From a virus, in IMG/VR virus record IMGVR_UViG_3300015371_000003, positions 32,001 to 96,000 of that record: a stretch of 64,000 bases of DNA; one strand, given 5' to 3'. The notes under the pieces were generated by a model that was given only the letters and a program-made list of their open reading frames with translations, was not told where the DNA came from and ran no database searches. The position numbers were made by a program, and so were the translations under genes. The stretch's first letter is position 1. Each line of letters opens with the position of its first letter. Shown here one piece after another: positions 14,692 to 18,662 of this stretch.

Positions 14692-15185
14692 TGGATCTGG
14701 CGTATTTCGCGGCGGATACCCTTGGGGTGACGCTCTACCAAATTGGGGACACGTTGACGGCCAACGAGGTGCGCCAGACGGCACTCGGGCCATGGACGCT
14801 GGATCTGCCGATGGATGTGGAGTCCGATATCCTCTCCGGCACTGAGCTAGGCTTCTGGGTCACGCTTGGCAAGCAATTGCACCTCTACGTGGTCGTGCGG
14901 GAGAAGGAGAACTGGCTGTTCGTCCTGAACCACACGAAGCTGGCGGACTGCGAGCAACAGACCCTGTTCGAAGCCCAGACCATCATCGGACGGCTGAAGG
15001 AATTCAAACCGGCTATTGTGGGCGTGTTTGAGTGGGGTGACAACGAGTGGACCCAAGTCAAGTATGATGGGGGCGGGAGCGAGCATGCTGACGATCTGGA
15101 CGAAGGGTCTTCCGAACAAGGTACTGCAAGCGTTCTCCCCGGTGCTGCGTTCGGTACCGCATCTGCCCGTCCACGTCGTCAGTGA
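14691..15185 (+). CDS. Hypothetical protein
   Basis: TAATG-coupled start with SD ggagg (MDLAYFAADTLG…); 3' end overlaps the polymerase start. Confidence 0.55.
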   Translation: MDLAYFAADTLGVTLYQIGDTLTANEVRQTALGPWTLDLPMDVESDILSGTELGFWVTLGKQLHLYVVVREKENWLFVLNHTKLADCEQQTLFEAQTIIGRLKEFKPAIVGVFEWGDNEWTQVKYDGGGSEHADDLDEGSSEQGTASVLPGAAFGTASARPRRQ

Positions 15186-18100
15186 TTTTACCGTCCCCGC
15201 TGGCACCAAGACCATCTTGGCGCTTGGCGGGGATTCTCTCAAGCAACTCCAAACCGAAAAGGTGATCGCCAAGAACCGGACGATCACCGCCTACCGGACC
15301 CTCCCGCAAATGCGGGGCGGCGTGCCGGTGCTCATCAGCTACGATTCGAGCATCGGAGAGATTGATTACGGCTACCACGTCGATCTGTTGACGGACGTGA
15401 CGCTGGCGATTCGGTTTTGTCTGACCGGCAACTGGAAACCCGCCTACGGCAAGTATCGCTACGTCCCTGACTTCGCGGAGCTATGCACGTCGATTGAGCA
15501 GCAGCACAAGGCGACCGGCAAACCGGTGGACGTGGCGAAGGATCTGGAAACGTTGGGGCTGGATCCGTATGCCCTCCCCTCCCTGAATCCTCTCTACCCC
15601 GGTGCCTACATCGTGACCATGCAGGCCACGCACCAAGCGGGCACCGCAGATGTAGTGCGCTTCAGTAATCGGGAACACGAGACGGAACGTTTACAAGATC
15701 AGACACTTCGTGAGCAGATTGAGTTTCTGTTGCGCTGTCCCTACGTGCGGCTGAAGGGGGCGAATTTCAAATACGATTTGCATTGGCTGTGGAAGCGGGG
15801 CGGCTTTACCTGTTCCACGTTCTGTTTTGATACCACTATCGTTGGCTCGCTGCTGGATGAGAACCGGTCCAACTCCCTCGACACGCACACCAAGATTTAC
15901 GTGCCGTCGTTGGGTGGGTATGCAGACGTGTTCAACGCGACGGTGGACAAGAGTCGCATGGATCAAGTTCCACCGGATCAACTTCTCCCGTATGCGGGCG
16001 GCGACGTGGATGCGGATCTACAGGTGGCGGCAGCACAGAAGTCGGAACTACTCCGAGACAAGCAACTCACCTCGTTCTACGTGAACATCCTCCACCCGGC
16101 AGCACGGGCCTTCGAATGGGTGGAGCAAGGGGGTGTCCTTGTCGATCTGCCTGCCTTTCAGGAACTGAAGGCAGATTTGGAGCAGGAGCACCAACGGCTG
16201 GTCAAAGAGGCGTGCAAGATCATGGGCGGGCGCATCGTGGCGAAGCACGGTTACATGGTGGACCCCGGTGGTTTCAATCTCACCAAGGCGTCCATGCTCT
16301 GTGACTTCATGTTCAGTCCGATGGGGCTGAATCTGAAACCGCAGATGTATACGGCGAAGCCCGATAAGGATGGGATCAAACGCCCCTCGACGGCAATGGA
16401 ACACCTTGAGATGTTTGCGGAGGTGCCGGAGGCCAAAGCCTTCGTGGAGATTATCCGTGAAGACTCTGGGGTGATGAAGACGTATAACACCTATGTGGTA
16501 GGGTTCTTGGAACATCTCAGGTCGGACGGACGCTTTCACCCCACGTATTATTTGTTCGTAGGCAACCGGGATGACGGGGAAGGCGGGGCCAAGACGGGGC
16601 GGCTCTCCTGTAAAGCTCCGGCCTTCCAGTGTTGCGTGGGCGAGACAGAAGTGGTCACGAATCAGGGGTCACGATGTATTGATTGGTTGGTGGAGCAACG
16701 GGGAGCAGGACTCCATGTGCTGAGCCATACCGGGCAGTGGCAACCGATTGTAGACGTGCATCGAAATGGCGTCCAGCCAGTGTTTCGTGTGAGCACGGTT
16801 AGTGGTCGTGCAATTGACTGCACGGCAAACCATCCGTTGTTGACGCCTGTTGGGTGGGTAAGAACAGATCAGTTGGTGGTGGGGGATCGCTGTTATGTCA
16901 CTCGGACACCGCACGCAACATTACACGAGTCCGACGTATTACTCGTGGAGCGCGATGAAGAATCGTTGCTTGTCGAAGACATCGAAAGATTGGTCCAAGT
17001 ATGGGGGGCGTGGGATCAAAGTGTGCCCTCAGTGGATGACCTTCGAAGGCTTCTTGAACAACATGGGCGAGAAGCCGGGGAAGGGATGGTCTATCGAGCG
17101 GAAAGACGTAAACGGGAATTACGAACCGGGCAATTGTTACTGGGCGACATTGAAGGAGCAGGGCAGCAATCGTCGGAATACCAAATGGATTACATTCGAG
17201 AACAAGACGCAGACCGAGGCGCAGTGGGCGCGGGAGTACGGGATTTCCAGAGGCCGGTTGCATTACCGGCTCTCGATTGGCCTTCCGATGGAGCAAGCAC
17301 TGATGAAGACTACCCGCCCGACCGGAGTGTCTTCCAAGAAGACTGCATCGTTTCTATCGAACCAGTAGGTGAGCGAGAGACGTTTGATTTGACCATTGAA
17401 GGCAGTCATTCGTTCATAGCGAACGGGATTGCGGTCCACAACACGGTGCCCAAGCACACCAAGTACGCACAGCGAATCCGGCGTTGTTATCCGGCTCCAC
17501 CCGGATACGTGGTTGTGGAGCGGGATTACGGACAAGGGGAGCTACGGGTCATTGCGTGCGTAGCCCACGAGACGGGCATGCTGGCGGTGTTCAAAGCAGG
17601 CCGGGACATTCACGCAGACACCGCAGCCCCCTTCTCCGGCTTCACGTATGAGAAGCTGATGGCGTTGGAGGCGACGGATCCCCACACCTTCGAAGAAACG
17701 CGGCAGCTTGGCAAGGCAGGCAATTTTGGGTTGTGCTTCGGCATGAAGGAAGATGGGTTTGTCATCTACGCACGGGTGAACTACGGGGTGAACCTCTCGT
17801 GGGATGAGGCGCACGATTTTCGAAACGGGTTCTTCAAGAAGTACCCGCAACTGCTGGTCTATCACGAGTGGGCCAAGTCGTATGCGCGGCAACACAAATT
17901 CATTCGAACCCCCCTTGGACGGCTGAGACACCTCCCCCTGATCAAGAGTCCCAATCGAGAAGTGGCGGCAAAGGCGGAGCGGCAGGCCATCAACAGTCCG
18001 ATTCAAGGGTGCCTCACGGATATGGGCCTGTGGACGATAGCGTTGGAGCAACAGTCCGGGTTGGCAGAGATTGCGCCATGCTTCGGAGCCTGCCATGATT

Positions 18101-18276
18101 CCCTCATGAACTACGTGCCGGAGGATCGGGTGGATGAGATTGTGACGCGCCAACTGGACCAAATGGAATCGTTACCCTTTGAGAAAGTAGGTTGGCAACC
18201 TCAATTGACGTTTGTTGCGGATGCAAGAGTAGGAAAAAATTGGGGGGATATGACGAAATTCAAGAGGAAGAAATGA
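15085..18276 (+). CDS. polA: Family A DNA polymerase with 3'-5' exonuclease and an intein
   Basis: Exo motifs DLET, NFKYD, YAGGD; TGRLS; motif A DYGQGELR; motif B RQLGKAGNFGLCFG; motif C CHDS; probable start ATG 15085 after gggag. Confidence 0.92.
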   Translation: MLTIWTKGLPNKVLQAFSPVLRSVPHLPVHVVSDFTVPAGTKTILALGGDSLKQLQTEKVIAKNRTITAYRTLPQMRGGVPVLISYDSSIGEIDYGYHVDLLTDVTLAIRFCLTGNWKPAYGKYRYVPDFAELCTSIEQQHKATGKPVDVAKDLETLGLDPYALPSLNPLYPGAYIVTMQATHQAGTADVVRFSNREHETERLQDQTLREQIEFLLRCPYVRLKGANFKYDLHWLWKRGGFTCSTFCFDTTIVGSLLDENRSNSLDTHTKIYVPSLGGYADVFNATVDKSRMDQVPPDQLLPYAGGDVDADLQVAAAQKSELLRDKQLTSFYVNILHPAARAFEWVEQGGVLVDLPAFQELKADLEQEHQRLVKEACKIMGGRIVAKHGYMVDPGGFNLTKASMLCDFMFSPMGLNLKPQMYTAKPDKDGIKRPSTAMEHLEMFAEVPEAKAFVEIIREDSGVMKTYNTYVVGFLEHLRSDGRFHPTYYLFVGNRDDGEGGAKTGRLSCKAPAFQCCVGETEVVTNQGSRCIDWLVEQRGAGLHVLSHTGQWQPIVDVHRNGVQPVFRVSTVSGRAIDCTANHPLLTPVGWVRTDQLVVGDRCYVTRTPHATLHESDVLLVERDEESLLVEDIERLVQVWGAWDQSVPSVDDLRRLLEQHGREAGEGMVYRAERRKRELRTGQLLLGDIEGAGQQSSEYQMDYIREQDADRGAVGAGVRDFQRPVALPALDWPSDGASTDEDYPPDRSVFQEDCIVSIEPVGERETFDLTIEGSHSFIANGIAVHNTVPKHTKYAQRIRRCYPAPPGYVVVERDYGQGELRVIACVAHETGMLAVFKAGRDIHADTAAPFSGFTYEKLMALEATDPHTFEETRQLGKAGNFGLCFGMKEDGFVIYARVNYGVNLSWDEAHDFRNGFFKKYPQLLVYHEWAKSYARQHKFIRTPLGRLRHLPLIKSPNREVAAKAERQAINSPIQGCLTDMGLWTIALEQQSGLAEIAPCFGACHDSLMNYVPEDRVDEIVTRQLDQMESLPFEKVGWQPQLTFVADARVGKNWGDMTKFKRKK
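16630..17442 (+). mobile_element. Intein (271 aa) in the DNA polymerase
   Basis: AFQ|CCVGET… block A; TANHPLLT block B; FDLTIEGSHSFIANGIAVHN|T blocks F/G. Removal restores TGRLSCKAPAFQTVP. Confidence 0.92.
16895..17368 (+). CDS. HNH endonuclease nested out of frame inside the intein
   Basis: TYYSWSAMKNRC…YGGRGIKVCPQW..FEGFLNNMGEKP…SIERKDVNGNYEPGNCYWAT..EQ..NRR, a typical phage HNH family pattern, in the +1 frame relative to the polymerase. Confidence 0.8.
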   Translation: MSLGHRTQHYTSPTYYSWSAMKNRCLSKTSKDWSKYGGRGIKVCPQWMTFEGFLNNMGEKPGKGWSIERKDVNGNYEPGNCYWATLKEQGSNRRNTKWITFENKTQTEAQWAREYGISRGRLHYRLSIGLPMEQALMKTTRPTGVSSKKTASFLSNQ

Positions 18277-18662
18277 AGGGCATCCACAGCATGACCTTGG
18301 CAGAGCGAATCATAGCTAAGACTAAAGTGAACGAGAACGGGTGTCGGCTGTGGCAGGAGTCCTTACTGAAGGACGGCTATGCGCTGATTCGGTACAAAGG
18401 GAAAAAAATTACCGTGCATCGGGCGGCGTGGATGGCTTTCAAAGGTCCAATTCCAGACGGCATGTCGGTGTTGCATTCGTGTGATATTCGACATTGCACG
18501 GCTGAGGAGCATTTGTTTTTAGGAACCTATGCTGATAACTCGAAAGATGCTGTGACGAAAGGGAGACAAAAGAATTTATTTCCGAGTGGTGATCTGCATC
18601 CGAATAGGATTAAAAAACTCAAGAAATTGCAGCGGTTGACAAGACTGAGAGAGTTGGGTTAG
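18273..18662 (+). CDS. HNH homing endonuclease
   Basis: CRLWQ…GY…VHRAAWMAFKGPIPDGMSVLHSCD…HLFLGTYADNSKD; ATGA overlap with the polymerase stop; AT-richer DNA. Confidence 0.85.
   Translation: MKGIHSMTLAERIIAKTKVNENGCRLWQESLLKDGYALIRYKGKKITVHRAAWMAFKGPIPDGMSVLHSCDIRHCTAEEHLFLGTYADNSKDAVTKGRQKNLFPSGDLHPNRIKKLKKLQRLTRLRELG

Follow-up and report, generated by a model that had tools for sequence, protein, structure and literature searches.

A putative homing-endonuclease gene nested in the +1 frame of a DNA polymerase intein from an uncultured tailed phage

The polA intein and the open reading frame nested in it

We analysed a window of 64,000 nucleotides (nt) from the virus record IMGVR_UViG_3300015371_000003 (bases 32001-96000 of a complete 116,229-bp phage genome with direct terminal repeats), in which the DNA polymerase gene polA is interrupted by an intein that in turn holds a second open reading frame (ORF). 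The polA ORF encodes a family-A DNA polymerase of 1086 amino acids (aa) with a 3'-5' exonuclease domain, as judged from the ORF list and Pfam, and the class-1 intein of 271 codons is inserted at AFQ|TVPKH, just upstream of polymerase motif A. The features of the locus, in window coordinates, are:

15016..18276, plus strand: polA ORF, intein included.
15016..16629, plus strand: polA N-extein with the 3'-5' exonuclease and the N-terminal portion of the family-A polymerase; its last residues are KAPAFQ, as at the same place in the intein-less alleles (ORF list; Pfam DNA_pol_A_exo1 and DNA_pol_A).
16630..17442, plus strand: class-1 intein, 271 aa.
16630..16893, plus strand: N-terminal splicing half of the intein, with Cys1 and block B Thr-Ala-Asn-His, ending in Val-Gly-Asp-Arg-Cys (NCBIfam intein_Nterm and Pfam Intein_splicing; C1, T65, N67 and H68 invariant in 17 inteins; predicted local distance difference test score, pLDDT, about 90-96).
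16881..16886, plus strand: Shine-Dalgarno (SD)-like motif GGGGGA, made mostly by the intein Gly-Asp codons (GGG GAT), 8 nt 5' of the nuclease ATG (from the sequence).
16895..17368, plus strand: overprinted putative nuclease gene in the +1 frame, 157 aa from ATG to TAG, with a predicted N-terminal HNH-like (PacI-like) domain and C-terminal helix-turn-helix DNA-binding domain (PHROG 3377, E 7.4e-45; AlphaFold mean pLDDT 89; pN/pS 0.32, see below).
16909..17295, plus strand: intein-frame spacer, intein residues 94-222, without stops, not conserved as protein and predicted to be disordered (pLDDT 30-40; no domain match; pN/pS 1.36; 0 stops against 6.4 expected).
17346..17442, plus strand: C-terminal splicing half of the intein, blocks F and G, with Ser-His-Ser-Phe-Ile-Ala-Asn-Gly-Ile-Ala-Val-His-Asn; the nuclease ORF runs into it, covering its first 8 codons (NCBIfam intein_Cterm; T251, D253, H260, S261, F262, H270 and N271 invariant; pLDDT 86-97).
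17443..18276, plus strand: polA C-extein from Thr+1 (TVPKH, reached directly in the intein-less alleles), with motif A DYGQGELRV and the remaining palm and fingers (Pfam DNA_pol_A, residues 810-1078).

The intein starts with Cys-Cys-Val-Gly-Glu-Thr and finishes with Val-His-Asn, and the C-extein opens with Thr, one of the three residues (Cys, Ser or Thr) that a class-1 intein needs at +1. It matches the Pfam model Intein_splicing (PF14890, E 4.4e-12) and scores above the cut-offs of the NCBIfam models TIGR01445 and TIGR01443, and the residues C1, T65-A-N67-H68 of block B, T251, D253, H260, S261, F262, H270 and N271 do not vary across 17 related inteins. The boundaries are fixed by intein-less alleles, since seven PolA proteins of about 790 aa run from KAPAFQ straight into TVPKH without interruption. 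The intein is therefore a precise in-frame insertion into a conserved polymerase motif, with empty target sites in relatives. Its intact blocks and the essential nature of the host gene suggest that the polymerase precursor is spliced.

We read this element, with a probability of about 0.8, as a class-1 intein of non-canonical type, carried by the family-A polymerase of a tailed phage that is uncultured; its homing-endonuclease gene would be fully nested in the +1 frame and would not form an in-frame domain. The comparison with related loci, the selection acting on the two frames and the translation signals are the evidence for this reading, and they are presented in that order.

The +1 layout is shared by 14 distinct loci

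A blastn search of the intein region against GenBank phages gave no match, and a search for related loci with the single intein sequence as query found none. Searching with an alignment of polymerases that carry an intein, we retrieved 49 IMG/VR loci in which the same polymerase site is occupied by an intein. A nuclease homologue lies between the splicing halves in 18 complete loci which, together with the window, amount to 14 distinct sequences (the window and 13 distinct IMG/VR contigs), and the counts given below refer to these 14. In all of them the nuclease gene is shifted by +1 with respect to both splicing halves, within a polA that is one continuous ORF, and the nuclease stop is located -8 to +43 nt from the first codon of the C-terminal half. 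The nucleases fall into a short class of 150-165 aa, 52-75% identical to that of the window (n = 10: window, L002, L003, L004, L006, L007, L009, L010, L013 and L040), and a long class of 213-236 aa, 38-43% identical to that of the window and with a Cys-rich N-terminal extension (n = 4: L017, L018, L022 and L038). The +1 layout of the nuclease is real and is maintained by selection in many related phages.

The intein frame contains no stop codon over 450-708 nt in any of the 14 loci; the four remaining frames contain 0-17 stops, and zero was reached only in one reverse frame of L010. When the codons of each nuclease gene were shuffled synonymously, 2.9-18.2 intein-frame stops were expected and the probability of finding none was at most 0.05 per locus and below 2e-4 in most loci, values that are not independent and cannot simply be multiplied, as the 14 loci are phylogenetically related. 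For the nuclease ORF of the window the expectation is 6.4 stops and none is observed (probability about 2e-4), and in L040, with a guanine-plus-cytosine (GC) content of 36%, about 18 would be expected and none is present. Six free-standing homologues from cultured phages have 1-29 stops in the frame that corresponds to the intein frame. A reverse-strand ORF of 132 codons (16898..17296) was also considered and was dropped as not conserved, the reverse frames of the nuclease region carrying 2-6 stops in the window and 0-14 in relatives.

Codon-position differences and the ratio of nonsynonymous to synonymous differences per site (pN/pS) were computed on the ten short-class genes. The mean pairwise difference at nuclease codon positions 1, 2 and 3 is 0.32, 0.275 and 0.58, and pN/pS by the Nei-Gojobori method comes to 0.32 for the nuclease frame, 1.36 for the intein frame and 1.10 for the frame that is not used, ratios that are indicative only because standard dN/dS methods are biased in overlapping genes. 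Over the same bases, the sequences encoded in the nuclease frame share 52-75% of their amino acids with the window, and those encoded in the intein frame 23-42%. Taken together, these contrasts in pN/pS, codon positions and identity indicate that selection acts on the protein encoded in the nuclease frame, whereas the intein frame is selected for openness and not for content. When the intein frame was modelled with AlphaFold, residues 94-222 of the intein had a pLDDT of 30-40, against about 90 or more for both splicing halves, and Pfam gave no domain match for this centre.

These results bear out most of an initial annotation of the locus, which was made from the sequence alone. It had described intact splicing blocks at 16630-17442, for which the coordinates proved exact, the Pfam and NCBIfam models agree and the intein-less alleles set the boundaries; an intein-frame centre without a recognisable domain, where indeed none was matched and the predicted structure is poor; and two frames open over about 470 nt, which are both open to a degree beyond chance. 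Its proposal that the intein frame is kept open as a linker is likewise corroborated by the selection against stops, with purifying selection in the nuclease frame only, and the comparison of dN/dS in both frames that it suggested gave the contrast reported above.

Translation signals and the choice of frame

The start codon chosen for the nuclease is ATG in 13 of the 14 loci, L017 offering only TTG or GTG candidates, and GGAG, GGGG or GGGA lies 9-14 nt 5' of the chosen start in every locus. Nine of the ten short-class loci form this SD-like motif from the intein's own Gly-Asp codons, and in those nine the nuclease ATG overlaps an invariant intein Tyr codon (TAT followed by G). The Gly codon that forms the motif is GGA or GGG in all nine, against 27-70% use of these two codons for Gly in the exteins of the same phages; the product of the extein frequencies is about 8e-4, by our own arithmetic and for loci that are not independent. 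The N-terminal extension that follows the ATG differs in length between loci. The SD-like motif, the start codon and the bias of the Gly codon favour internal initiation over frameshifting, and we infer that the nested ORF is translated separately in this way. This is in agreement with the earlier proposal of a separately translated ORF with its own ATG and stop, which fits the comparative tests, the SD-like motif, start and stop being kept at the domain borders.

The same family was found overprinted in a cultured phage. Ralstonia phage Gamede (NC_054958.1, 33009-33419; L051:4001-4411) has a complete member of the nuclease family in the +1 frame inside a 13.9-kb coding sequence (CDS) annotated as 'DarB-like antirestriction', and the arrangement is also present in GP4. 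The host frame of Gamede has no stops across the nuclease, and its GC content of 63% makes such openness more likely by chance. No intein motifs were seen in the host-frame translation around this nested nuclease.

The genetic code may explain why the +1 frame is used. In the +1 geometry a host-frame stop (T|AA, T|AG or T|GA) requires a nuclease codon ending in T before AA, AG or GA, and since T at such a third position can always be exchanged synonymously for C, the host-frame stop is removable. In the other same-strand frame, a Met codon that precedes Lys, Asn, Thr, Ile or Met creates a TGA that no synonymous change can remove. Each of the 14 nucleases would bring 1-4 synonymously unremovable stops into this alternative frame, and the dipeptides responsible include the conserved Met-Lys of the motif Trp-x-Ala-Met-Lys-x-Arg-Cys. 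All copies, that of Gamede included, would thus use the +1 frame because only there can host-frame stops be removed synonymously, a reason that we draw from the code and the sequences.

The nested protein and its relatives

The nested ORF matches PHROG 3377, 'HNH endonuclease', over residues 7-144, as well as PHROG 374 and PHROG 2081, which bear the same annotation, and the three E-values range from 7e-45 to 6e-23. A tblastn search with this ORF found homologues in 919 GenBank phage records, and the six that were checked are intergenic or separately annotated genes; at E<=1e-3 the nuclease family comprises 111,532 representative clusters. The AlphaFold model of the ORF, built on a 41-sequence alignment, has a mean pLDDT of 89. 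Residues 97-133 resemble the DNA-binding domain of I-TevI (Z 2.6) and other helix-turn-helix modules, and the language-model neighbours of the protein are viral, a part of them containing NUMOD modules. In the nuclease alignment, as judged by eye, N80 does not vary and Q89 and N92 hardly do.

Annotation seems to have shortened genes of this family. The protein on record for the nested ORF (P0123, window 17036-17365) is a fragment of 110 aa, 100% identical to residues 48-157, and since it starts at an internal Met the gene was evidently shortened during gene calling. The best GenBank homologue (50% identity) lies in Ralstonia phage RSF1 (NC_028899.1, L052:601-996) and spans about 400 nt; only a CDS of 165 nt (locus 868-1032) is annotated there as 'HNH endonuclease', and this annotation looks truncated.

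Mobility and other alleles at the insertion site

The incongruence between extein and nuclease described here rests on identity matrices. Between loci, nuclease identity is not correlated with C-extein identity (Spearman -0.01), and the nuclease identity is usually the higher of the two. The window and L007, for instance, are 75% identical in the nuclease and 47% in the extein, and the nearest extein to that of the window (L038, 58%) carries a nuclease of the other, long class that is 40% identical. Nuclease identity does correlate with the identity of the splicing halves (rho 0.39, p 1e-4). A nuclease whose similarity is decoupled from that of the polymerase, together with the presence of intein-less alleles, fits active homing.

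Other alleles were found at the same site. Three loci (L011, L024 and L026) have short inteins of 161-200 aa, which answers the suggestion, made in the initial annotation, to look for mini-intein alleles at AFQ|T, and other lineages have inteins with large in-frame domains at the same polymerase site. The intein of L011 (1643-2242) has 200 aa, and in its +1 frame a long-class nuclease has lost its core, while the ATG, the first ~23 residues and the C-terminal helix-turn-helix are still there; from this composition it is an internal deletion derivative of a nuclease-bearing intein, with both frames left open, and not an ancestor. Nuclease-bearing, short, deleted and intein-less alleles would together be the stages expected of a homing cycle.

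Two loci (L020:2896-4851 and L027:2962-4899) contain two tandem inteins about 12 extein residues apart, the first with an in-frame HNH-type domain and the second, at AFQ|T, with a large in-frame domain. The polymerase region around AFQ|T is, on these sequences, a hot spot for multiple inteins. In L014 and L015 (2941-3373) the N-terminal half of a short intein is not in frame with the C-terminal half, and stops intervene; the allele may be broken or split, or wrongly assembled. About 800 nt further downstream, beyond the intein, there is a distant homologue of the nuclease.

Alternative explanations and origin

The best solved fold match for residues 6-96 of the nested protein among 48,161 chains is the HNH enzyme PacI (Z 6.4, root-mean-square deviation 3.1, 77 residues), a moderate match given that a Z below 8 can reflect a common arrangement. 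Foldseek gave nothing below E 0.4 against the PDB, its non-significant top matches being I-HmuI (E 0.47), Gme HNH, PacI and I-TevI, and a profile of the family gave only chance lysozyme matches at E 0.1 against PDB sequences. No Pfam HNH model matches the nested ORF or 40 relatives, and for the nested ORF itself no Pfam model matches at E <= 0.1, Endonuclease_7 and LAGLIDADG included. By eye, the invariant R69 of Ser-Ile-Glu-Arg occupies the position where the catalytic His of HNH enzymes is expected, which makes the chemistry uncertain. These points, like the relatedness of the 14 loci mentioned above, weigh against our reading, and the missing Pfam match, the Arg in place of His and the moderate fold support would all be expected if the protein were selected but did not cleave DNA, being a DNA-binding or non-catalytic HNH-derived protein in an element that spread otherwise or was kept for another role. 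We consider this unlikely. The matched PHROG families are all annotated as nucleases; a nuclease-like domain joined to a DNA binder like those of I-TevI and NUMOD proteins is the build of modular homing endonucleases; the similarity of the element is decoupled from that of the host gene and empty sites exist; and PacI, the best structural match, is itself an atypical HNH enzyme. We therefore describe the nested protein as HNH-like, the name 'HNH' resting on the PHROG label and the fold match, and as a presumed nuclease. The initial annotation of a complete-looking HNH nuclease was right about the ORF, which is complete and a real homologue of PHROG 3377, and its label needs qualifying, as Pfam has no HNH match for the ORF and the fold match is moderate.

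The position of the nested gene could also be explained in other ways. If the endonuclease were truly in frame and two compensating indel errors in sequencing or assembly had shifted it to +1, as the initial annotation had warned, the layout would be an artefact, and we give this practically no credence: 14 distinct, independently assembled loci with nuclease identities of 38-75% have the same +1 relation to both halves, and a start codon and a stop are present at the borders in all of them. Programmed frameshifting, +1 at the N-terminal border and back at the C-terminal border, would make the nuclease a cryptic in-frame domain of the intein and not a separate protein, and the overlap on the same strand does mean that ribosomes translating polA traverse the nuclease region. 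It is nevertheless very improbable, as the SD-like motif with ATG is conserved where the nuclease region is entered and a stop codon where it is left, no shared slippery sequence was seen at either border in the sequences examined, the variable length of the extension after the ATG fits initiation rather than shifting, and the nuclease family is abundant as free-standing genes. As to the origin of the nested gene, an ancestral in-frame endonuclease domain might have been shifted out of frame by indels and acquired its start and stop later; one such ancestral event could explain why both nuclease classes are +1, and the present data require no in-frame intermediate. We judge this improbable, though less so than frameshifting, because the nuclease family is never in frame among the 49 loci whose site holds an intein, the family is overwhelmingly free-standing in phages, and its +1 copy inside the non-intein CDS of Gamede speaks for invasion of coding DNA by the family in the form of a gene. 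Invasion of a mini-intein by a free-standing nuclease gene, as the initial annotation proposed, would be a plausible origin; the present layout fits all comparative tests, and at least the mini-intein of L011, as a deletion derivative, does not represent the ancestor.

Proposed mechanism and comparison with known systems

We propose that ribosomes translating polA would make a precursor whose intein splices despite a linker of ~130 residues that is probably disordered, and that occasional internal initiation at the nested ATG would yield free nuclease, the nested gene borrowing its ribosome-binding motif from the Gly-Asp codons of the intein. During co-infection the nuclease may cut or nick intein-less polA at or near AFQ|TVPKH, and repair could then copy the intein and the nuclease together into the intein-less allele.

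Inteins with an out-of-frame endonuclease have already been published, in descriptions dating from 2025-26, and the novelty implied by the initial annotation was accordingly too high. Non-canonical inteins were first proposed by Gorbalenya in 1998, as cited in bioRxiv 10.64898/2026.09.14.751524. A survey of actinophages (Gogarten-lab preprint) reports inteins with a complete splicing domain, a centre without a recognisable fold and an endonuclease ORF on the same strand in another frame, and its authors propose that a free-standing endonuclease gene invaded the intein. The element described here resembles them in the complete splicing domain, the unfolded centre, the endonuclease ORF in another frame and the proposal of an invasion. 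It differs in the enzyme, which is endonuclease VII-like (InterPro IPR004211) and in 'frame 3' in the actinophages and here is a PHROG-3377-type protein without a Pfam match in +1, and in the hosts. In the survey these are genes of cultured phages for thymidylate synthase, terminase, minor capsid protein and DNA polymerase (Pol III alpha is the one listed), and here the host is the family-A polymerase of uncultured phages.

The dnaX intein of cyanobacteria, which carries an out-of-frame LAGLIDADG endonuclease (Gogarten-lab preprint, bioRxiv 10.64898/2026.09.14.751524), shares with our case a disordered in-frame centre of low confidence and a confidently folded endonuclease in the alternative frame, a low dN/dS for the endonuclease frame beside an elevated one for the host frame, SD-like motifs, the coexistence of mini-intein and intein-free alleles, and a model of secondary invasion. 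The dnaX case differs in having a LAGLIDADG enzyme in a '+2' ORF of a cellular gene of cyanobacteria, where ours is HNH-like, +1 and in a phage polymerase. The ShiLan domain, a hidden out-of-frame HNH endonuclease in a mycobacteriophage DNA methylase (Genes 2025, PMC11855218), is alike in that an HNH-type gene is overprinted in a stop-free host ORF with a homing-like distribution. It is without a detectable splicing domain and its insert is presumably retained in the protein, whereas intact intein halves bracket the insert here; it also has no detectable ribosome-binding site and its authors propose a GTG start, in contrast to the SD-like motif and ATG of our loci. The nuclease of Gamede looks like a hidden nuclease of the ShiLan type in a cultured phage. 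In fractured genes, split inteins have a free-standing endonuclease gene between their halves (Dassa et al. 2009, as cited in the actinophage survey); in them the host gene is divided over two ORFs and splicing is in trans, whereas in our 14 loci polA is continuous and free of stops through the element, which rules out a fractured-gene arrangement.

The features common to the published out-of-frame inteins were all found here, namely a complete endonuclease ORF that lies between the splicing halves in a different frame, an open and unfolded host frame, and purifying selection in the endonuclease frame only. We regard the element as a new member of this group rather than the same element because its nuclease is neither endonuclease VII-like nor LAGLIDADG by Pfam and belongs to PHROG 3377. 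Few inteins with the homing enzyme as a separate overlapping gene have been published, and to these it adds a well-supported case, seen in 14 loci with two classes of nuclease, whose nuclease family and host gene, the family-A polymerase, are not among the published cases. It supports the view that in intein evolution the splicing domain comes first and the endonuclease invades later, it offers a reason in the genetic code for the choice of frame, and it illustrates how an intein motif can double as a ribosome-binding site. Such inteins get annotated wrongly as decaying or mini-inteins, and their nuclease genes are missed or shortened.

A broader idea, which we put forward only tentatively and hold to be less likely true than false, is that PHROG-3377-type genes are general overprinting invaders of coding DNA, restricted by the code to +1, which enter ORFs with an intein (polA) or without one (the DarB-like CDS of Gamede). 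They would probably have done so first in high-GC phages, in which the host frame is open by chance, and then in low-GC phages under selection against stops, with the Gly-Asp codons as a ready-made ribosome-binding site.

A probable second homing-type gene beside polA

Directly 3' of polA, the window contains a canonical HNH_3 endonuclease gene (18273-18662, plus strand; Pfam E 2e-11), and an hhalign comparison of its protein with the nested nuclease family gave a probability of 0.9%. It looks like a second, free-standing homing-type gene beside the polymerase. Its likely ATG overlaps the TGA stop of polA (ATGA), and the local GC content is ~47-50%, compared with ~57% around it.

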